Source: a virus. From it: a stretch of DNA of 63,293 nt. The notes below the pieces were generated by a model. The model worked only from the letters and a program-made list of their open reading frames with translations, did not search any database and was not told the origin of the DNA. A program made the position numbers and the translations under genes. The stretch lies in UHGV virus genome UHGV-0247968; one strand, given 5' to 3'. Below, piece after piece: positions 14,066-59,498 of the stretch; position 1 is the first letter of the stretch, and each line of letters opens with the position of its first letter.

Positions 14066-14122
14066 GAAGCCCCCTTATGTCGACCAATGCGGGCGGAGTG
14101 TCGACATAAGGGGGCTTTTTTT
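14066..14122. terminator. bidirectional intrinsic terminator between the convergent + and - blocks
   Basis: gaagcccccttatgtcgac ... gtcgacataagggggctt followed by TTTTTTT on the + strand. T-rich (cttcttgtttc) on the - strand. Confidence 0.75.
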
Positions 14123-14174
14123 GTATCCGGCATCCTGGAGGGAACGGGAGGTAAAACCAGGACGACGGAAATAT

Positions 14175-14777
14175 TTATTCGGCGATGTCGATGGTGATGG
14201 GGATACTGTTCACAGCCGTACCATTGCAGTTCGTGGCGCACACGCTCATGGAGAACTGTCCCGATACGTTCGGTGTGCCGGACAGCGTGACCGTGTTGGC
14301 TTTGGTCTCGACCTGCATCCAGTCAGGAGCACCGTTCACCCCCAGGGTCATAGGCATCGAACCATAGAACGCTACATGCCCCATCCACGGCTGACCCTTC
14401 GTACAATCAGGGAATCCATAACCACCGACTTCTACCGGTTCGCATTCACAGGGACCTTCGCAGCAGGTGTAATTGCACACAAGGTCTTTGATGGCGGCGA
14501 TGATAGTGGGAGAAACGGTGCGGACACAGGCGCCATACGCGAACGTCTGGGGTTTGGTGCCCCCGATACCGCGTTCCAGCAACAGTGTGCCGTGGTCGTT
14601 CCGCACCTTCACGGTCTCCATATCGGTGTCGCCGACGATGGACAGGTAGGTGTAGTCGTCTTCACCACTGAGCAGGTCAAGCAAGTCGGCCTGCGCCTTG
14701 CTGACGATAGGAAGGTCGAGGTCGCTGGCTTCGAGTTTGCGTATCAGGAATGTGGTGAAATACTTGTTTTTGAACAC
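14175..14777 (-). CDS. hypothetical Cys-rich protein (last gene of the - strand structural block)
   Basis: ORF. Contains CNYTCCEGPCECEP. Confidence 0.45.
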   Translation of the reverse strand: MFKNKYFTTFLIRKLEASDLDLPIVSKAQADLLDLLSGEDDYTYLSIVGDTDMETVKVRNDHGTLLLERGIGGTKPQTFAYGACVRTVSPTIIAAIKDLVCNYTCCEGPCECEPVEVGGYGFPDCTKGQPWMGHVAFYGSMPMTLGVNGAPDWMQVETKANTVTLSGTPNVSGQFSMSVCATNCNGTAVNSIPITIDIAE

Positions 14778-14792
14778 GACTGTGTCTCCTGT

Positions 14793-15347
14793 CTACTTGC
14801 TCGCAGCAAGTCTGTGTTCAAGTTCTACTACACGCTTTTCGAGTTTGGCAAGGGCTTCTTCAGAAGCGAATCCGATATGCCCGCTGTTGACGTAGTCGAG
14901 GTTGGACAATGCGCGGTGGTCACTCGTTCCGGGAGGGCCGGGAGGACCTTGCTTGCCCGGGGAGCCGGTTTTTCCGGTAGCTCCAGGGCGTCCTTCCGGG
15001 CCAGGGTCGCCCTTCGGGCCAGGGTCGCCTTTCGGGCCAGGTACCCCGCGCAGACCACGCTTCCCAGGGATACCTTGTCTGCCGGTTTCACCGGGAGGGC
15101 CGGGAGGGCCGGGAGGGCCGGTGAGACCCTGTTTGCCGGGGGAACCCGGTTCCCCTTTGGGCCCCGTCTTACCGGTGTTGCCGGTGTTACCCTTGTCGCC
15201 CTTTAGCGGTTCGCCCCACCGCAGGAGACAAGGCGAAGAACTGTCAAAGATGAGAGCTTGTCCATCCTTGCCACCGGGCGGGATACCGATGACGGGATTG
15301 ACAGGGTAGCCTTCATCGCAACCGTAAGGGATGTCGTGCCGTGCCAT
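14793..15347 (-). CDS. collagen-like (G-X-Y)n repeat protein, probable tail fiber component
   Basis: About 32 consecutive Gly-X-Y triplets ([25 protein letters not shown]...) at 14925-15215, followed by a coiled coil. Confidence 0.7.
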
Positions 15348-15938
15348 TTATACCTCTTCGTCACACGTCCCAAGCACGAATTGTACCTGGGCCATGTCGA
15401 TAATGTGTTCACTGCATCGAGGACCGTAGTCTATATCGAACCGCGCCAAAACGCAAAACAACGGCTTGGGGGGCAGGTGCACCGGAGAATGGATACTCAG
15501 GTCAGGAACACACGGAGAATCAACAGGATGCGGTGTATCACGGATGGTGCGGAGCATTCGGAAATCGAGTGGCTTGTTGAGTGCCGGGTGATACTGCAAC
15601 ACACCGGTGTAGCGTCCCCAAGGCAGTGTGCGGAACACGTCGGGGATACGGAACTCCACAGTGCCATCTTCTCCCCAGGAGAATGCTCTGCATACGATAG
15701 GGGCGAAGTCAGGCGGTGCAGGATTCGCCACATCGACATCGACGCGATGCCCGGGCCAGCAGCCGTGCAGATACCACGGACTTCCGCCGACGTGACACCC
15801 GCAGGCGCAATCATTGTCGACTTGCCCGGGCACGATGGTCAGTACGACGTTGCGCCAGTCCTGCAAGATACGATTGTTACGCCAGTCTTTGATACGGATA
15901 CCGATGCGGGTGACATCTTCGGTGAGCGACAGAATCAT
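15348..15938 (-). CDS. hypothetical protein
   Basis: ORF between the large virion proteins and the collagen-like protein. Confidence 0.4.
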   Translation of the reverse strand: MILSLTEDVTRIGIRIKDWRNNRILQDWRNVVLTIVPGQVDNDCACGCHVGGSPWYLHGCWPGHRVDVDVANPAPPDFAPIVCRAFSWGEDGTVEFRIPDVFRTLPWGRYTGVLQYHPALNKPLDFRMLRTIRDTPHPVDSPCVPDLSIHSPVHLPPKPLFCVLARFDIDYGPRCSEHIIDMAQVQFVLGTCDEEV

Positions 15939-15939
15939 C

Positions 15940-18900
15940 CTAACCCCTCGTCTGGTAATAGTTCAACGCGCTTACGGCTGCATCGTATAGGTTCCCGGAC
16001 GAAAGCTCAAGGTTGGCGAATGCGGTACGCAGTTCTTCCGAGTCTTCCATCGCGAGCCACCTGTCCTTGTATTCCTTGTTGAAGTCCGTGCCGTTCTTCC
16101 GAAGCGCTTTGTCGGTTTCCCAGATGAGCATGTAGTCGGAAATCTCTTCCGGGGTGAAACCGATTTTTTCGAGCTGGGCCTGACGATAGGCTCCGGCGTC
16201 GACGCTGCGGTCAGGTGACGTTATCTTCACACCGGAACGCCGGATGCGGGATTCATATTCCTCTTTGGCGTTGTAGTACAAAAGCTGGCTCGACTTCCCG
16301 GCATTCCCGAACCATGTGGACGTACCAAGTCCACGCAGCAGCGGGTGCATGTCACGAAATTCGGACATGCTCTGCGACCCTTTGTAGAGGGCTTCGTTCT
16401 CGACAGCACCCATGACCATGCGCAGAGGACCGGTGAGGATGCTCTTCGCCATGTAGCGCAGTTGTTCAGGAGCGAAGTCGATGCCGGTCTCGCTGTTGAG
16501 GCGTTTCGCCATGTTGTGCCAGATGACCGGGGTATTCGTTCGGCCCGTAGACGACAGCGCCGTCGTACCCTGGGACGACTCACGGGTTATCTCTTGCCCG
16601 AAATACGACCGGTTGATGGCGACATCGACAAAGGGGCGCAGGGGCGGCGGGCAGAGAAACGCTGCCAGATAATCGGCAGGATGTTCCGTGAAGCGATAGT
16701 CGGGCCAGTTGCCCGGCATGGTGTTCTTGACCGTGAGGAACAGCGTATCGAAGGCCAGGTCTTGCGGAGACATGAGACCGCTCGCCACACGTTCCTGACC
16801 GACGGACAGCATGGCCGCTATCTGCGGCAGACCAAAACCGACAGGGAAGCGGACGAAGTCTCCCTCAGACCCCATGCCGATGGGTATACCGCGCACCAGC
16901 TCGGACAGCGACATGGCATCCATACGATACTTGCCATTATCATCCCGGCCAAGGGATTCCCGGGCCAGCGGGTACAACATGGAATACGCCCCGTAGGCAG
17001 CCAGCAGCCCCATGTAGCCTCGCATCCCCTGTTTGATGATGTCACCTGGAGTACGCGCACCGAGACCCAAGGTGCGGGCCAGGGCCACACCAGATTCCAC
17101 AGTGGGTACGACATAGGGGAACAGGACGCGAAGGTACGGCGTCAGTTCACCACGATGGCTCAGGTTCATCATTTCCAGCACGCCACGGGCTGCACGGCTT
17201 GCCGGTACTCCGGCTTCGCGCAGGGTGACGAACTGGGAAAAAGCACCCGCATTCTGGAAGAAGTCGTTCCAGCCATCCAGTACACGCATGACTTGGTTCT
17301 TCGACGTGCCGAGACTTCGCAGCCAGCGCGCTACGCTGGGGCCCCCGTAGTTGACGATGGCCTTCTCCAGCCGGGAAGAAGCATCCGGCAGTCCAGAAAT
17401 GGTCCCGGATTCTTCGACCGGAGACCGCTGTCCCTGGATGTATTTCTGGAACAGACCGCCACGACGATATTCTTCCAGATATTGGTACATGGGATTCGAT
17501 TCGTCGAGCCTGCCCTGCATGATGTCCAGCAAGGCTTTGGATGCCCTCGGCGTGTTTGCCAGCACTTTCGCTGCCAGAGAGCTGCCTTTGATGCGAGTAC
17601 CGTCTTCAGCGTAGTAGTCACGATTCACCATGTTGGATGCACGTTCCATCACATCACGAGAACCGGACAACGGAGCGAACAGAGGCGAGAACCGCGTGTT
17701 GAGCTGGCTGACAAGACTGGTGAAACGCCCGGCAGCTTCGACCGGTAACCCGGCGCTGCCCAGCTTGTAATCGCTGGACATGGCATTGTTGAGCATTTCA
17801 CCGGTGAGACCGGATTCCACATGGGACCACTTGGGGTCGAAGCGAAGGTAACGCCTTTTGATGACAGTCTCACCGTCAGCAGTAGGCGTAGGTACATCTG
17901 CCACGATACCACCCCCGGTAAGGAGCTGGTCAGCGATGGCGCGCTGCTTGGGATTCGTGCTGTGAGACATCCGCATGAGGGAGGCGTAATCGTAGGTCTT
18001 GATACCAGAAGCGTCGATGGCGCCGGTCTCCAGCAGATGGTCAGCAACGGCGAACATGTTCACAGCAAATTCACGAGAACCGACTTCGGTCGCCGCCCTG
18101 TTGATGTAGAAGAACAACGTGTCATACGCGCTGTCAGGACGGGACGACCGCCCCTGGATGGCGTAGTACGACCCGGGATTGTATGCCGTGCTGTCGTTCG
18201 ATACACCGAGCAGGTTGCTTTCACGGGTTCTGATAGCGACGTAATGCTCGAACCCGGGGAAGCTGTCCAACACTTCTCGTGAGACGACACCGGCATTGAC
18301 GCGTTCTTCAAGCACCATGTCGAAAAGACCGGAGATACCATCAGCGATGGTGTCGGCTTCTTCTTTGGAAAGACCGGTCTCTCGCAGGATGCGTTCCATC
18401 TCGAACTGCGCTTCCCCGTTGGTGTAGCCTGCGGACACGAGGTCTTCGGGGAGGTCGGTAGTTTCGTCGATGAAGTCTTCGAGCTGTTCGATGTTGCGTT
18501 CCAGCTCCCGCAGACGCTTCTTGTCCCTGCCGTCCATATCAGGGCCCTTGCTCACAATGTCTTCAGCTTCATCCATCCAGCGCCCGAGCAGCAAATCGTT
18601 GGTCTCCGGGATGTGCCTGCACACAGCATAGTGGCCCATAACACGCGCAAGGTCTTCCAGGCTTCCCGTCCAGCCTATACGACGGGCAACAGGTTCGAGC
18701 GATTGTGTGAAGCTCGCGACACGGTCGCGCATGAGCAGATTCAGTGCGCGGACCTTCTGGGGTGTCTGGTCGAAGATGCGCCAGAGAGTGTTTTCGTTCG
18801 TCGGGCGGTCGGCCTGGTCGGCAAAGAGTCGGGCCCACTTGGCGAAGCCGCCGCGAACATTAACGAACTTCGTGTATATGCCGTTCTGGAAGTTCAACCA

Positions 18901-54639: not shown

Positions 54640-54830
54640 GGCTCACCAGGAACGCATGACTGATGCTCCACAGGAATGTATCCGGTCCCTGCAACACCCC
54701 GGGCGTATCACCCTAGTTTCACCCGGGACATCGTTCAGGCAGTTTTGGTTGTACCCCAGGAGCGCGCCATAGTCAACATTGACATCCTCCCCCGCCTAAA
54801 GTCGGGGGATTCCTATCGGTAGCGGCTCTA
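54640..54830 (-). ncRNA. putative TnpB-associated omegaRNA / right-end RNA
   Basis: By analogy with IS605-family elements the guide RNA overlaps the tnpB 3' end and extends to the right end. Strong secondary structure is visible (ggaggatgtc..., cccgggtgaaactagggtga...). Not verified. Confidence 0.3.
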
Positions 54831-56030
54831 ACGAGCCGCGCCACAGGCGGGTTCCTGCTTCGACGCGGGCGCTTGAGCCCTTCCCGCTCCACAGGCTGTC
54901 ACGGCCTGCCCGGCCGCCAGAATGTTCAACGCCGCATTATGGTCAGCGTTGCATTCAAATCCGCAGGCCGTACAGCTGAATTTCGCCTGCGTTGGTCTGT
55001 TTGCCCTGTCTACGCATCCGCAATGGCTGCATGTCTGACTGGTATACTGCGGTGGAATGACAATCAGCACACCTCCCAGCCATTTCAACTTGTACTCAAG
55101 CTGTCTGCGGAACTCATACCAGCCCTGATCCAGTATGGACTTGTTTAATCCTGCCTTTGCCCGCACATTTTTCCCCGGTGCTTCAAGCGTACCGGAAGCC
55201 GAACGCGACATATTCCGCACTTTCAAATCTTCAATCACGACAAGAGCGTGGTTTTTGCTGATTATCGTGGTTGTCTTGTGCAGAAAATCGTTGCGTACAT
55301 TGGCTATTGTACGGTGCAGGCGCTGGATTTTGGCTTTGAGCTTCTGCCAGTTGGCGGAAAACTTCACTCGTTTTGCCAACTTCCGCTGCAGCTTTGCCAG
55401 CTTCTTTTCATGCTTGCGGAAACTGTGCAGTGGTCTGATAGAAGAGCCATCGGAAAACGTCGCAAAACGGGCAATGCCCATATCTATGCCGACGACACTT
55501 TGCGAAGGATGCACAGGTTCTGGAACTTCCCGTTCCGTCTGAATGGAGACGTACCACTTTCCAGCGGAAAGAGAGACTGTCACCTGTTTCGGCGTTCCCT
55601 CTATTTTGCGGCTGTTGCGGTAGCGTATCCACCCGATTTTGGGAAGGAATATGCGGTCGTTCCTCTCGTCCAGCTTGAAACCCTGCGGATAGCGGAAGGC
55701 GTCATGAACCCCCTTTCTCTTGAAACGCGGGAAATTCGCACGCTTCGCAAAAAAGTTTTTGTAGGCCCTATCGAGATCTTTCAACGCTTGTTGCAGAATT
55801 TGAGAATGGGCTTCAGCAAGAAAAGATGTGTCGTTTTCCTTCTTCCAGTCCCGAAGGGCTTCGCAGAGCAAGGAAAACCCCAGACGCTTCCCTTCCTTTT
55901 CATAGGTCTCTTTTTCCAATGCAAGCGCCTTGTTCCAAAGGAAACGACAACAGCCGGCAAAGCGCCGCATGAGGCTTTCCTGCCCGGTTTTGGGGCGGAG
56001 CTGAAACTTATAGGCTTGCAATCTTTCCAT
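54828..56030 (-). CDS. tnpB: TnpB (IS605 OrfB-type RNA-guided nuclease)
   Basis: MERLQAYKFQLRPK start. RuvC-like motifs GIDMG, VVIEDLK, NADHNAALNI. Zinc finger CSHCGC...CTACGFEC. Confidence 0.85.
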   Translation of the reverse strand: MERLQAYKFQLRPKTGQESLMRRFAGCCRFLWNKALALEKETYEKEGKRLGFSLLCEALRDWKKENDTSFLAEAHSQILQQALKDLDRAYKNFFAKRANFPRFKRKGVHDAFRYPQGFKLDERNDRIFLPKIGWIRYRNSRKIEGTPKQVTVSLSAGKWYVSIQTEREVPEPVHPSQSVVGIDMGIARFATFSDGSSIRPLHSFRKHEKKLAKLQRKLAKRVKFSANWQKLKAKIQRLHRTIANVRNDFLHKTTTIISKNHALVVIEDLKVRNMSRSASGTLEAPGKNVRAKAGLNKSILDQGWYEFRRQLEYKLKWLGGVLIVIPPQYTSQTCSHCGCVDRANRPTQAKFSCTACGFECNADHNAALNILAAGQAVTACGAGRAQAPASKQEPACGAAR

Positions 56031-56303
56031 AGGTTCCAGTCTATCGCAGCACAAACGAAAAGGCAAAAATTCCAGTTAAGGTGCGCCTTATATCCCCGCC
56101 CTGAAGGGCGAGGCTTTACGGCGCGCTGGGTAAAATCTGGTGCCCCGCCCCATCAGCTCAACCGCAGGCGGTATGGGGCGGGGACTTTCAAGTTTGGCGT
56201 TCCAGGGTTGGCGTCCGGTCGCGTACCCCAGAAACACATCGGGTGTGCAGTCACCCGACAGCAAACTGTACAAAACGTCACGTCGTCTTGCTGTTGGCTG
56301 AAC

Positions 56304-56975
56304 CTACTTGGAAGACGCTCCGGTGTCAAGAGCTTTCGGGGCCAGGGCCAAAATCTTGTGCATGGCCTGCCGCAAATACTCAGCTTCCCACTCAGCATCG
56401 TGCAGGGCGTGGTGCGCGACACCGGTATCGGGGACCTCGACGGTGATACCGAGGGACTTCGCCATGAGCTCCACGGTTCTGAGCGACTGGTTGTTCCGGT
56501 AGGTCCACACCTTCGACAAGAAATCGGAATCATCATAGCACGCAATCGCGTCACGCCAGATGACATTATCGAACTCCGGTCCCTTCCCCCAGAACTGCAC
56601 ATCGGTACCGGACCGAACAGCAGAGTACGACATGACCCAGCGCACAAAATGCCGCGCGGCAAAATACAGGGAGACGGCATCGTTGTCGTCGAACACGGCT
56701 TCCCGTGCAGCAGGACTGGTCTTCATGGCCCACCACCGCACCGTATCATAATCCATGATACGGCCCGGCTGGTTGTCACCACGAACAGTACAATAGAACC
56801 TGCCGATGACTTCATAGTGTTCGTCGAGGGCCACGGCACCGATGGCTACGATGACAGGTCTGAGACCAAGCCCGAGCGTTTCGAGGTCGATGACCACATG
56901 CAACAGGGTGCGGTCCCGCCCCTGGATGTTTTCCTGCACACGATACATTTCGGTGCCACATTCTTCTTTATCCAT
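56304..56975 (-). CDS. DEDDh-family 3'-5' exonuclease (DnaQ-like)
   Basis: Exo I VIDLETLGL; Exo III HHALHDAEWEAEYL. ATG at 56975 after GGGAGG. The table ORF extends upstream without an RBS. Confidence 0.75.
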   Translation of the reverse strand: MDKEECGTEMYRVQENIQGRDRTLLHVVIDLETLGLGLRPVIVAIGAVALDEHYEVIGRFYCTVRGDNQPGRIMDYDTVRWWAMKTSPAAREAVFDDNDAVSLYFAARHFVRWVMSYSAVRSGTDVQFWGKGPEFDNVIWRDAIACYDDSDFLSKVWTYRNNQSLRTVELMAKSLGITVEVPDTGVAHHALHDAEWEAEYLRQAMHKILALAPKALDTGASSK

Positions 56976-57002
56976 ATATACCTCCCGTATGTATAGAGCT
57001 GT

Positions 57003-57031
57003 GTATAACAACACGCACAGAAAATAGCAAC
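57003..57031 (-). promoter_or_regulatory. possible promoter for the - strand operon (TTGCTA-17-TATACA on the - strand) in an AT-rich stretch
   Basis: Divergent intergenic region 56976-57587. Confidence 0.3.
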
Positions 57032-57302
57032 ACGAAAAGTAAAATACAAAATTTTTCAGGTAAGTGAAAAGATATTCGAGTGTGGGGCCTGTCCAGATGG
57101 GGTGGGGTAGTGATGCATAGTGGGAGAATTTCGAAGGTGGAGAAGGTTGTGAGCGCAGCACAGAATGTACGTTTTCTCTACGGGTCGACGGAACCGCCGT
57201 CCAAACCCACCTGGCCCTCGCCGAACGCGCTGCCGCCCTCGCGCCCAGGTCCCCGCCTAAGTATCTGAAATCATTGAACTTTTCGATATACAAAATACGT
57301 TA

Positions 57303-57361
57303 TTGACAGCCCCCCTTACATGTGACACTATTACCTTAACAGGTTGAGATAATACCTTAAC
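57303..57361 (+). promoter_or_regulatory. TTGACA-17-CACTAT promoter-like element followed by two direct TACCTTAAC repeats spaced 21 bp apart (operator-like)
   Basis: TTGACA at 57303-57308. Repeats at 57332-57340 and 57353-57361. Upstream of the + strand 57588 gene. Confidence 0.35.
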
Positions 57362-57587
57362 GGTATTGCTTCCCCTGCCTGCTCTTTGACAATGCGGACA
57401 GCCCGCCCATCCGCTCGCGCCTCATGGCGCACAAGCGCCATCCCCGCCCCTCGCGTCTGCCATCGTGCCACGTTGAGACGGCGCGGCGCATGCCATGAGA
57501 CAACGCGAGGGACACGGATGCACCGGCACAGTGCTGGCCTGATATAGAGACATCACACGGATGGGGGAGACGGAAAGGGGATGCACC

Positions 57588-58256
57588 ATGAGCAACACCA
57601 ATACCGCCACCACCAACAACACCACCACCACCAAGCCCGCCGCCGTGCCTACGGCGAAGGTCTTCGCCGGATACGTCGATGAGCTGATGGCAGCTGGTGC
57701 CGCCGTCGAAAAGGTAGCGGCCAAGATCGCACTGGCCGCCACCAGACAGGCCGCCCATCGGTCAAGCCTGTCCTACCTCAACGCAGCCTATGCCGCGTTC
57801 AAGCGGTGCCACCTCACATGCCTGCCGCAGCTCACTCGCTACGCGCTGGGCGCGCTGGGCGGCATGGCCGCCGATGACAAAGGCAATCCTGTGATTTCCC
57901 GGTCAAAGTCTCTCCTGCGCGTCACAGACGCGCGGGAGAGGAAGCAGAACGGTGGAGATGCTTTCGACTGGGCAGTCGAACCGAAGGACGCACGAGCCAA
58001 GGAAGAGCTGGCAAGAGCCCGCAGGGCTCTTGCTCACAGTGACTTCGCCGACTTCCTGACCGCGCCCACGGCTTCGGCCAAGCCCCTGAAGGAAGACGGC
58101 ATGACGCAATCTGAACGCGAATTGCGGGCGTTACTCAACTGGGCACGTCGGAATAACAAGGCCGCCACCAGCAAGCGTGCTGGTGAGCGCGGCTACACGG
58201 AACTTCAAGACGCGCTCCGCGCCGTCAAGGCACTGTTCAAGGAATTTGACGATTAA
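57588..58256 (+). CDS. hypothetical Ala-rich protein (first gene of the + strand block)
   Basis: GGAAAGGGGA RBS before the ATG at 57588. N-terminal T/N-rich tract. Confidence 0.5.
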   Translation: MSNTNTATTNNTTTTKPAAVPTAKVFAGYVDELMAAGAAVEKVAAKIALAATRQAAHRSSLSYLNAAYAAFKRCHLTCLPQLTRYALGALGGMAADDKGNPVISRSKSLLRVTDARERKQNGGDAFDWAVEPKDARAKEELARARRALAHSDFADFLTAPTASAKPLKEDGMTQSERELRALLNWARRNNKAATSKRAGERGYTELQDALRAVKALFKEFDD

Positions 58257-58259
58257 CAA

Positions 58260-59205
58260 CAAAACAACCTCTCCCCCTTCCATGTGGTGCCTCTATGTCT
58301 GGGATACCCGCCTGAGTGATAGGTTAACGACGGAACCGCACATGGTGGTGCGCTCCAGTAATCTGGTGCGTCCAGTGTGAACATGTGCGGATAGTGTCGT
58401 GTGGTGTGAAGGCACGACACAAAGGGCCGATGTATGATTAGCACACTGCGTGTGCGAGTTATACAGAGCGGCCCATGTATGACTGGCACGCGACGTGAAA
58501 CTATTACGCTGCGTGCCAGTCATACAATGAAGCTGTTTCACCAGCGAAAGTAAAAACAACTTACGTCAAATGTGATAATGTTTCTCAAAAGTCTTTGAAG
58601 GCTTTTTCGAGTGTTGTTTTTACTGAATTTTACATGATTTTAACACTCGCGAAAGTTTAGCACTCGCGAAAGATGAAGTGTGAAACTTTTGCGCGTAGGC
58701 AAAACTTATGCGAGTGTGTAGCAAGAAAATGCAACAATACAGGAAAAAAGTTGCGAGAAAACGACGAACACTCGCGAAAGTTCTGCCTACGCGCAAAAGT
58801 TTCACAGTTTGACTTATGCGAGAGAGTAAACTTTCATTTTGCTGTGAAGATTCCTGCAAAAGCTGCATGGCACCAAACAGCAAGGGAGAAGAAAAGAAAA
58901 AATACAATAATAATAATATATTATATATTATATATATTATATATATATTCTTCCTTCTCACAGAAGAAATTTCTTTTTCATTTTTCTGCCGATTTTTACC
59001 CCTTGCTGGAGATTTTTCGCGGGTTGAGAATGTTGCGTGTTTTTTGCGCTGTTCTCCCCCTTCTCCACATTCTTGGCTGTTCTTTCCAAATCGGCAAAAA
59101 ACTTTCAATCTTTTATGAGTAGCCTTCCTCACCTTCTCTACCTTCTTACTCACACAAGGCTACTCACTTTGTTTTTCAACCCCAAAAAGTGTCGAGGGAG
59201 GACAC
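58260..59205. repeat. ~950-bp AT-rich non-coding region with iterons and inverted repeats (candidate replication origin / regulatory hub)
   Basis: CACTCGCGAAAG x3 (58644, 58661, 58769). 22-bp inverted repeat gtgaaacttttgcgcgtaggca (58680-58701) / tgcctacgcgcaaaagtttcac (58784-58805). Direct repeats ACTTATGCGAG (58703, 58811). TGTATGA(C/T)T iterons direct at 58431 and 58476, inverted at 58511-58526 (16-bp perfect IR with 19-nt spacer). (TA)n/ATATT microsatellite 58900-58950. Confidence 0.6.
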
Positions 59206-59210
59206 GCAAA

Positions 59211-59498
59211 ATGGCAGTGAAATTGTATCGTATCATCAACGCCAGCAAGACCTGCAAAGGTCGTGCGGCATGGCGGCTTGACGAGGTTCTGTATCCGGCG
59301 AGCCTCCCCTGCAATCCGGTAACGCCGGATGAATTGCAGGCGGCCATCTGGAAACAGCTCGACGAAGAATCTTGGTTCCCGCCCATCGTGGCGTTCGAAT
59401 GGCACGACGGCAACCTTTACCTCGTGCAGCATCCGCGCCTCAATGTGGTCGTGCGGCATGTGCTGACGGCATGGCGCAAGACGCATGCTGCCGAATAA
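59211..59498 (+). CDS. hypothetical protein
   Basis: GAGGGAGG RBS. 95 aa. Confidence 0.5.
   Translation: MAVKLYRIINASKTCKGRAAWRLDEVLYPASLPCNPVTPDELQAAIWKQLDEESWFPPIVAFEWHDGNLYLVQHPRLNVVVRHVLTAWRKTHAAE

Follow-up and report, generated by a model that had tools for sequence, protein, structure and literature searches.

In lambdoid phages, the origin (ori) and the O protein occur in specificity types that co-vary. Other origins are activated or primed by transcription: the primary origin of T7 combines promoters with an AT-rich region, T4 uses oriF and oriG, and the ori of lactococcal phage c2 depends on an essential untranslated early transcript. The oriS of herpes simplex virus 1 (HSV-1) has an AT-rich centre and inverted sites for its origin-binding protein, a superfamily 2 (SF2) helicase. 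In SPP1, oriL and oriR contain directly repeated sequences together with an AT-rich unwinding element that are bound by the cognate origin-binding protein, gp38 (PMC6316719). PLE has a RepA/iteron non-coding region with several repeat types, including semi-palindromic repeats that converge on A-runs (PMC7145576). Here we analysed the non-coding region around 58260–59205 of the viral genome UHGV-0247968, a complete phage genome of 63,293 nt (the window). The region lies between a 222-aa gene (57588–58256) and a 95-aa gene (59211–59498), the latter marking the start of the early/replication operon at 59211. As judged from its sequence, it is an early control region that most likely contains a replication origin, a reading that we hold tentatively and rate slightly short of an even chance. 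Its repeat array would be recognised by a phage-encoded protein with four helix-turn-helix repeats, the 4xHTH protein.

Like lambda ori/O and SPP1 oriL/oriR–gp38, the locus carries copies of a short repeat beside an AT-rich tract, the gene of a putative DNA-binding protein is located in the replication module, and the specificity types of repeat and protein co-vary. Different from lambda and SPP1, the repeats are non-coding and lie ~11 kb from the gene of the candidate binder, not inside it; the sites form a 160-bp dyad and not a direct array; and no relation was detectable between the 4xHTH protein and O, gp38 or DnaD-type organisers. The replisome is phage-encoded (family-A polymerase and DUF927 primase-helicase). 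The large non-coding region with several repeat types also resembles PLE RepA/iterons, SaPI Rep, whose iterons flank an AT-rich stretch, and SCCmec Cch; as for the last, the primase-helicase weakly matches the Cch1 cassette-chromosome helicase model. However, no RepA_N-type or SaPI-Rep-type initiator was detected, the sequences are unrelated, and the element belongs to a 63-kb phage with its own polymerase. Like the T7, T4 and c2 origins, the locus would have an untranslated structured transcript running from a promoter towards an AT-rich tract at the head of the early genes, but the predicted hairpin domain of this transcript has no sequence or Rfam relation to described RNAs. The likeness to HSV-1 oriS is an analogy only: inverted repeats are present on both sides of a pure A/T tract and an SF2/SNF2 helicase gene is linked to that of the candidate binder (6.6–9.2 kb), whereas the main array lies to one side of the tract and the helicase has few type-specific replacements.

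Related contigs were collected from IMG/VR, ENA human-gut metagenome records and Logan assemblies. The alignments covered ~25 members of the phage's own family, then a second one (L065, L067 and L043, with DUF3150 proteins ~42–44% identical) and a third (L046–48 and L070–77). The region spans 954 nt between the 222-aa and 95-aa genes and is the longest non-coding stretch of the window, as had been proposed; the runner-up is ~612 nt (56976–57587). Its earlier description as 950 bp of AT-rich DNA holds for 58530–59200, where the GC content is 17–48%, and fails for the first ~270 nt, with a GC content of 51–56%. The region is a composite of four parts and not a single 950-bp AT-rich block. The repeats, the A/T tract and the candidate binder are as follows.

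58539–58824, both orientations: array of eight sites of one motif family (CACTCGCGAAAGTT, TACGCGCAAAAGTT, CACTCGCATAAGTT), candidate sites of the 4xHTH protein
58539, 58644, 58661, 58769 and 58788, + strand: array sites
58684, 58703 and 58811, − strand: array sites
58663–58717 and 58768–58822, no strand assigned: large inverted repeat with 55-nt arms, 84% complementary, around a 50-nt A-rich centre
58552–58565, + strand: invariant 14-mer AAAAACAACTTACG, unchanged in 19 relatives
58828–58846 and 59099–59117, + strand: two copies of AAACTTTCA(T/A)T.TT.T(A/G)TG, type-specific, with the half-site AACTTTC in both
58886–58949, no strand assigned: A-run (58886–58905) followed by a 44-nt pure A/T tract, AATAATAATAATATATTATATATT... 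(58905–58949), candidate DNA-unwinding element
6582–7184, + strand: 4xHTH protein, 200 aa, four tandem three-helix repeats, putative cognate binder of the array

The original prediction had seen three iteron families here. The repeats themselves were all recovered: CACTCGCGAAAG occurs three times (58644, 58661 and 58769), the 22-nt inverted pair GTGAAACTTTTGCGCGTAGGCA (58680–58701) and TGCCTACGCGCAAAAGTTTCAC (58784–58805) is separated by 82 nt and forms the core of the large inverted repeat, and ACTTATGCGAG is directly repeated at 58704 and 58812. However, the three families reduce to one motif family, present in both orientations, and to stem sequences of two hairpins that are paralogues. Reverse-complemented, ACTTATGCGAG is a variant of CACTCGCGAAAGTT, and GCGCAAAAGTT is a second variant. 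Three pairs of sites are exactly symmetric about 58742/58743, and these pairs make up the large inverted repeat. With up to three mismatches, CACTCGCGAAAGTT has nine matches genome-wide, seven of them inside 58539–58801 (263 bp), versus ~5 expected in the whole 63 kb. No similar motif cluster was found elsewhere in the genome. The two copies of the AAACTTTCA-type 19-mer are its only matches in the genome, versus 0.24 expected, and both are kept in relatives.

As expected of an origin, the repeat cluster is confined to one locus (eight sites, 58539–58824) and, by composition, an AT-rich element of conserved length lies next to it, the 44-nt pure A/T tract. The (TA)n/ATATT tract of the original prediction is indeed present at 58905–58949. 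Together with the preceding A-run, it has a GC content of 17–23%, and the tract is the AT-richest stretch of the genome; the array lies 80–390 bp from the genome's most AT-rich 100 nt (85% AT). The tract is 41–47 nt long in nearly all relatives. In the distant relative L065, where proteins are ~40–70% identical and the flanking repeats are unrelated, it is 89–97% identical over ~45 nt. The cumulative AT skew of the linear window has its maximum at 58916, marking a switch from A-rich to T-rich sequence at the tract. The dyad-symmetric cluster of a single motif beside a pure A/T tract with phased T-runs supports the assignment of an iteron-type architecture to this putative origin.

The module 58601–59200 exists as two sequence types, in which all repeat copies in both arms change together. 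Type A carries ACTCGCGAAAGTT and CCTACGCGC; type B carries CTCACGCGAAAGTT and GCACTAACGC. Four type-A and up to seven type-B genomes were compared to the window in sliding 200-bp steps over 53.0–63.3 kb and 0–10.2 kb, with a gap at ~54.8–56.2 kb, where the window has a TnpB insertion of its own. Besides the marginal interval 6201–6400, only two islands separate the types, 58601–59200 and 6601 to ~9200; the intervening 10.7 kb is a mosaic, as is the 5 kb on the left side. The peak of the second island (6601–6800) corresponds to the first two HTH repeats of the 4xHTH protein. Compared to the window, the N-terminal half of this protein is 100% identical in type-A genomes and 84% identical in type-B genomes, and 14 of the 15 fixed A/B differences in the protein fall in residues 13–92, i.e. 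HTH repeats 1 and 2. Among the differing codons in the N-terminal half of the HTH gene, 15 are nonsynonymous and 23 synonymous (ratio 0.65), versus 18–23 and 126–138, respectively (~0.15), in the adjacent SNF2 gene. In a large protein database, the alleles of the 4xHTH protein fall into two clusters and no more, one with 113 members and the other with 208. Across the genomes compared, the association between repeat type and 4xHTH allele is perfect. The original prediction had named this protein for a gel-shift assay (EMSA), a choice that is supported here: in no other protein do the alleles follow the repeat type from genome to genome. Such a pattern would be expected of a DNA-binding protein that is co-adapted to its sites.

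Other candidates for the cognate binder were rejected. Neither the 222-aa and 95-aa neighbours nor eleven other nearby proteins show an A/B association. The product of the open reading frame (ORF) at 15258–16082 (+ strand), p274, appeared to follow the types; it is an antisense artefact of a − strand gene, and so is p361. The 4xHTH gene lies ~11 kb from the array, among genes for replication proteins, with DNA_pol_A and a PDDEXK nuclease on one side and an SNF2 helicase and a DUF927/Cch-like primase-helicase on the other. Its product gave weak matches to HTH families, and the AlphaFold model has the secondary structure of four three-helix modules; with a pLDDT of 61, only the secondary structure of that model is usable. 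A Foldseek search against the PDB returned nothing significant, and sequence searches of the PDB were empty.

Just upstream of the 14-mer, relatives have a tandemly repeated 45-bp unit, GCCTACGCAGGAATGCTCACGGAAGTTGTACGACATGCCGTGTGC, whose copy number ranges between 0 and more than seven, even between near-identical genomes; the window has none. It was seen in L003, L005–L007, L028, L029, L032, L035, L051–L053, L058, L059, L063 and L064, inserted at ~58528–58545. Its copy number is independent of A/B type. Two mini-motifs, M-like or containing GGA, are present per unit and were seen by eye as mini-hairpins with GGA in the loop. In L006 and L059, the 45-bp repeat takes the place of the 3′ arm of the last hairpin described below.

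The overall layout recurs in more distant phages. In L065 (DUF3150 ~42% identical), the same order was found: gene, hairpins, large inverted repeat, A-run/TA tract/T-runs, inverted repeat and operon. The 14-mer AAAAACAACTTACG is also present in L065, in the opposite orientation and on the other side of the TA tract. At the same boundary, the third family has AT-rich ~36-nt tandem repeats and GC-rich 12-mer tandem repeats (e.g. GCCGAGCCACCC), then three phased A6GT runs directly before a TTGACA/TTGACC promoter, and then a ~450-nt structured leader; the repeats and phased runs were located at 1850–2180 of L070 and at the starts of L072, L074 and L076.

Different in nature from the array is the left third of the region (58267–58527), which is the best-conserved sequence of the locus. 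Together with the elements upstream, it comprises the following.

57303–57331, + strand: sigma70-type promoter, TTGACA, a 17-nt spacer ending in TGn, and CACTAT
57540–57574, no strand assigned: left arm (~35 bp) of a long-range inverted repeat, overlapping the Shine-Dalgarno (SD) region of the 222-aa gene
58267–58303, no strand assigned: right arm (~35 nt) of the long-range inverted repeat, directly after the stop codon of the 222-aa gene
58318–58330, + strand: 13-mer GATAGGTTAACGA, linker between the long-range arm and the hairpins, identical in L065
58336–58527, + strand: domain of four hairpins (58336–58390, 58394–58420, 58424–58474 and 58476–58526), from RNAalifold and covariation

The TGTATGAYT copies that had been taken as iterons are present, at 58432 and 58476, the latter within a perfect 16-nt inverted copy (58476–58491 and 58511–58526). 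However, they are the stems of the last two hairpins, which are paralogous. In 18 distinct sequences, the RNAalifold consensus of the four hairpins has an energy of −110 kcal/mol with a fold z-score of −6.6, and 99.3% of the cells pair; sliding the partners abolishes the signal. Thirteen pairs have double changes, versus 2.4 in shuffled alignments, none of 500 shuffles reaching 13. The pairs include 125 G·U cells versus 6 A·C cells, and six positions are (near-)fixed as G·U while none is fixed as A·C (symmetric internal mismatches were inspected). Owing to this excess of G·U, and to the fact that only G·U pairs are fixed, the domain points to a structured RNA of the + strand that would be co-transcribed with the 222-aa gene. 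An additional 'hairpin 1' (58278–58335), suggested by the first fold, was discarded; it has no covariation and overlaps the arm of the long-range repeat. No Rfam 15 family was matched at gathering score by the window, nor by the upstream non-coding region or the third-family leader searched separately; with an E-value threshold, only chance matches were obtained, those of the window being sub-threshold matches to models of eukaryotic miRNAs, snoRNAs and cis-regulatory elements and to one model of a streptococcal sRNA. A tRNA/tmRNA search of the window found none. A relative of the linker 13-mer, GATAGGCTAGC, is present in two copies in the third-family leader (L070). The motif GATAGG(T/C)TA(A/G)C is kept in the leaders of all three phage families (window 58318–58330; L065 5442–5454; L070 ~2460–2545), and its inner hexamer is a co-varying palindrome (GTTAAC versus GCTAGC).

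The promoter motif TTGACA-N17-CAnTAT at 57303 is kept in 12 of 12 relatives inspected; the consensus scan did not flag it. The region had been placed at the head of the + strand gene block. The block itself is there, but it begins one gene earlier, with the 222-aa gene (57588–58256) behind this promoter (57303–57331), so the region sits between the first and second genes of the block. A consensus terminator scan called none between the 222-aa gene and the region; the only call was the SD hairpin, read on the − strand. The second-longest non-coding stretch (56976–57587), between a divergent exonuclease gene and the 222-aa gene, also holds a second TTGACA at 57387, a GC-rich 5′ untranslated region of ~250 nt, and near-matches to DnaA boxes at 56968 and 57000.

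The two long-range arms bracket the 222-aa gene. Their duplex energies range from −47 to −93 kcal/mol across all relatives, nine of the 37 pairs have compensatory double changes, and the counterpart in L065, although different in sequence, pairs perfectly over 36 bp. The mismatch types show no bias towards the + strand. The repeat may therefore be either an RNA helix controlling translation or processing, or a repeat acting at the DNA level. An invertible segment was considered and rejected: the 222-aa gene has a single orientation in all ~25 relatives and in L065, and no recombinase was found among the scanned proteins, in a scan covering only part of the genome. The AlphaFold model of the 222-aa protein (pLDDT 41) was unusable.

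To the right of the A/T tract, the region ends in a T/C-rich arm with the following features.

58950–59205, + strand: right arm, T/C-rich and type-specific, leader of the early operon, with phased GATTTTT runs
59003–59031, + strand: putative promoter, TTGCTG (59003–59008, a weak −35), a 17-nt spacer and GAGAAT (59026–59031)
59116–59126 and 59156–59166, + strand: hairpin followed by a U-run
59189–59205, + strand: hairpin whose loop contains the SD belonging to the 95-aa gene

A consensus sigma70 promoter scan called none in the region. The GAGAAT box and the SD hairpin are kept in all relatives.

Based on these features, the locus could work as follows. The promoter at 57303, conserved as a motif, would drive + strand transcription through the 222-aa gene. 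The transcript would fold into the four hairpins (58336–58527) that covariation and strand-specific G·U pairs predict; candidate roles of the folded RNA are processing or stabilisation, insulation of the origin from read-through, or primer or activator transcription. The 4xHTH protein may bind the eight CACTCGCGAAAGTT-type sites, as suggested by the perfect co-variation of repeat type and allele. By analogy with lambda, SPP1 and plasmid iteron origins, binding and bending beside the A/T tract, flanked by the A-run and the phased T-runs, would melt 58905–58949, and the DUF927 primase-helicase and family-A polymerase could then be loaded. Finally, the T-rich right arm would provide the early/replication operon from 59211 with its leader and possibly also with its promoter. 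Since the right arm carries this leader and possible promoter, firing of the origin and early transcription are probably coupled.

The proposal of a replication origin by the original prediction thus gains from the iteron-type architecture, its confinement to a single locus and the recurrence of the layout in distant relatives, and loses on the GC skew, the DnaA boxes and the left third. Several observations weigh against an origin or are neutral. The GC-skew analysis asked for by the original prediction does not point to the region: although the steep negative skew ends at 57–58.5 kb, the cumulative skew of the circular genome is lowest at ~13.1 kb, with + strand genes having a skew of about zero, and the region is only an inflection, where a steep descent (45–57 kb) enters a flat basin of ~20 kb. 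A minimum at 58–60 kb in the linear analysis moved to 13.1 kb upon circular rotation, and GC skew was dropped as support. No cluster of DnaA boxes (TTATCCACA) was found in the region; there is one match with one mismatch (59061), and the genome-wide count is at chance level. The left third, instead of iterons, has strand-specific structure of RNA type. With 0 to more than seven copies, the 45-bp tandem repeats are not essential parts of an origin. No characterised homologue of the 4xHTH protein was found, and it could equally be a transcription factor. The association of types involves ~4–5 independent type-A and ~7 type-B genomes, and the second island also includes the SNF2 gene; because of this small sample and the shared block, co-adaptation is suggested rather than demonstrated. 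The corresponding repeats of the third family are immediately followed by a canonical promoter, as fits an UP-element or enhancer role. Given these repeats before TTGACA promoters, a skew minimum elsewhere and the lack of a DnaA cluster, a reading as operator, UP element and leader is viable. In its purely transcriptional form, which we consider unlikely although by no means negligible, the array would consist of operators or an enhancer for the 4xHTH protein as an early/middle regulator, the A/T tract would be an UP element or bend, the right arm would be the promoter and leader of the early operon, the hairpins would be a 3′ untranslated or intercistronic RNA, and the origin would lie elsewhere. 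The region is directly upstream of an ~18-kb + strand operon that encodes the 4xHTH protein, so autoregulation is possible; HTH proteins are typical regulators, and co-variation with sites is equally expected of an operator/repressor pair. The third-family phased runs before TTGACA-type promoters with their long structured leader, the distant GC-skew minimum, and the conserved GAGAAT box, hairpin with U-run and SD-in-loop hairpin upstream of 59211 fit as well. However, the right arm of the window has no convincing sigma70 promoter, its candidate −35 being weak; eight sites over 290 bp, centred ~185 bp from the A/T tract, are more typical of origins; the 4xHTH gene is embedded among replication genes; and the TA tract of a distant relative is more nearly identical than an UP element would need to be. 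Origin and operator functions may also coincide.

A larger share of the region could be RNA. If 58267 to ~58900 were mostly one long structured non-coding RNA, made of the four hairpins, the optional 45-nt modules and a giant hairpin with 55-bp arms, the repeats would be RNA stems and not protein-binding DNA, and the RNA might e.g. prime replication, be a substrate for processing, act in antitermination or serve as a protein sponge. The strand-specific G·U pairs of the four hairpins, the lack of a terminator after the upstream gene and the two GGA-in-loop mini-hairpins per 45-nt unit agree with this. The arms of the large inverted repeat also change jointly between types A and B and stay complementary through 12 pairs with double changes, with 87 G·U versus ~33 A·C-type cells. 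However, the strand asymmetry of these cells is only moderate, three positions of the repeat have a fixed A·C mismatch, and its A-to-B change is essentially one evolutionary event. No Rfam family was matched, and the repeat type tracks a DNA-binding HTH protein, which indicates a function at the DNA level. We regard one long RNA as very unlikely. Another proposal, in which a new structured RNA (the four hairpins, the linker GAUAGGUUAACGA and the ~35-bp helix bracketing the ORF) acts directly in initiation or gating of replication at the adjacent iteron/A-T origin, while a two-type HTH/iteron system segregates throughout the family, appears distinctly unlikely; the RNA may then be a primer, a processing product or an insulator against read-through. 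The A/T tract could instead be a physical feature of virion DNA (termini, a packaging site or an injection-stop-type cis site, comparable to the untranslated, repeat-rich stretch in the terminal repeat of T5), with the repeats as recognition sites. T5 is reported to have a large untranslated region in which its injection stop signal is located (bioRxiv 10.1101/866236). In favour, no fewer than seven relatives' contigs have an end in the TA tract, next to it or in the tandem repeats (L001/L013, L003, L004, L008, L054 and L067), including a genome-length contig of 61.9 kb with both ends there and one of 63.7 kb that starts there, and third-family genome-length contigs (among L072–L077) start in the analogous repeats. 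However, the break points vary by up to ~110 nt and always fall in low-complexity or tandem-repeat sequence, as short-read assemblers produce, and at least eight contigs, including the window and its twin from ENA, read straight through the tract. Owing to the scattered break points and the read-through contigs, we read the breaks as failure of short-read assembly and not as physical termini. Candidate portal and terminase genes, recognised solely from the size of their ORFs, lie on the opposite strand at a distance of ~19 kb, and the flanks of the TA tract are only 70–71% complementary, without a palindrome for telomere resolution. A role of the tract in the virion is thus highly improbable. 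For the same reasons, a cos/pac/terminus site was rejected, the ends being scattered over ~110 nt and not at one position, as was a protelomerase target (telRL), since no more than ~15 nt of TA repeat are perfectly symmetric.

Other assignments of the region were ruled out. The internal ORFs 58673–59122 (+) and 58620–59153 (−), already suspected to be artefacts, are not kept as reading frames among relatives, because the indels of the relatives are not multiples of three; the same indels exclude a coding region. A CRISPR array is excluded by the lack of spacers. The region is not the ωRNA of the nearby TnpB gene: it is on the wrong strand and 2 kb off, and the insertion is specific to one lineage. 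The TnpB gene itself (IS605 OrfB/Cas12f-like, 54828–56066, − strand) occurs only in the lineage of the window; at that position, beside the Rv2179c-like exonuclease gene, relatives have a dUTPase gene or other small genes. It looks like a recent IS200/IS605-type insertion in the phage genome.

Regarding the phage as a whole, an ENA human-gut scaffold of 63,762 nt contains the same genes and is continuous over the end and start of the window. The phage is a circular (or circularly assembled), ~63-kb, virulent-type and uncultured phage of the human gut. Its DNA polymerase is only ~28% identical to its counterparts in KPP25 and phiR18, the Pseudomonas phages that come closest among cultured ones, and megablast and blastn searches of phage and plasmid collections with the region gave no nucleotide match. 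The family is abundant: 545 relatives of the flanking 222-aa protein were found, and one DUF3150 cluster has 1033 members. Genes on the + strand run from 57588 across the window end to ~14.1 kb, and genes on the − strand occupy ~14.1 to 57 kb. The + strand block encodes AAA_5/MoxR, DUF3150 and VWA/CobT-like proteins, the family-A DNA polymerase, a PD-(D/E)XK nuclease, the 200-aa 4xHTH protein, the SNF2 helicase (7192–8841) and the DUF927/Cch-like primase-helicase. The + strand ORFs at 14121–16082 (361 and 274 aa, rich in R/H/G/C) are antisense artefacts, the real genes probably being the − strand ORFs at 14175–15938; the + and − strand genes therefore converge at ~14.1 kb, near the circular GC-skew minimum at 13.1 kb. 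The only match bearing on the host, a 2.9-kb contig binned in a Bacteroidales metagenome-assembled genome, was too weak to use.

Taken together, these observations suggest that the region is most likely an ordinary kind of element with an identifiable candidate partner protein. Computation alone yields here a probable origin or control region together with the protein that may read it, and the pairing of A and B proteins with A and B repeats is testable. Such a protein/DNA pair is a possible start for minimal replicons or for engineering of these phages. The strand-specific hairpin domain, which matches no described family, is a candidate new cis-acting RNA. Because of the A/T tract and the tandem repeats, assemblies of this phage group break at the locus, which bears on how the completeness or 'termini' of such contigs are judged. 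The locus belongs to a large, abundant and uncultured family of human-gut phages, and origin specificity types, as in lambdoid phages, may segregate in natural gut phage populations too.

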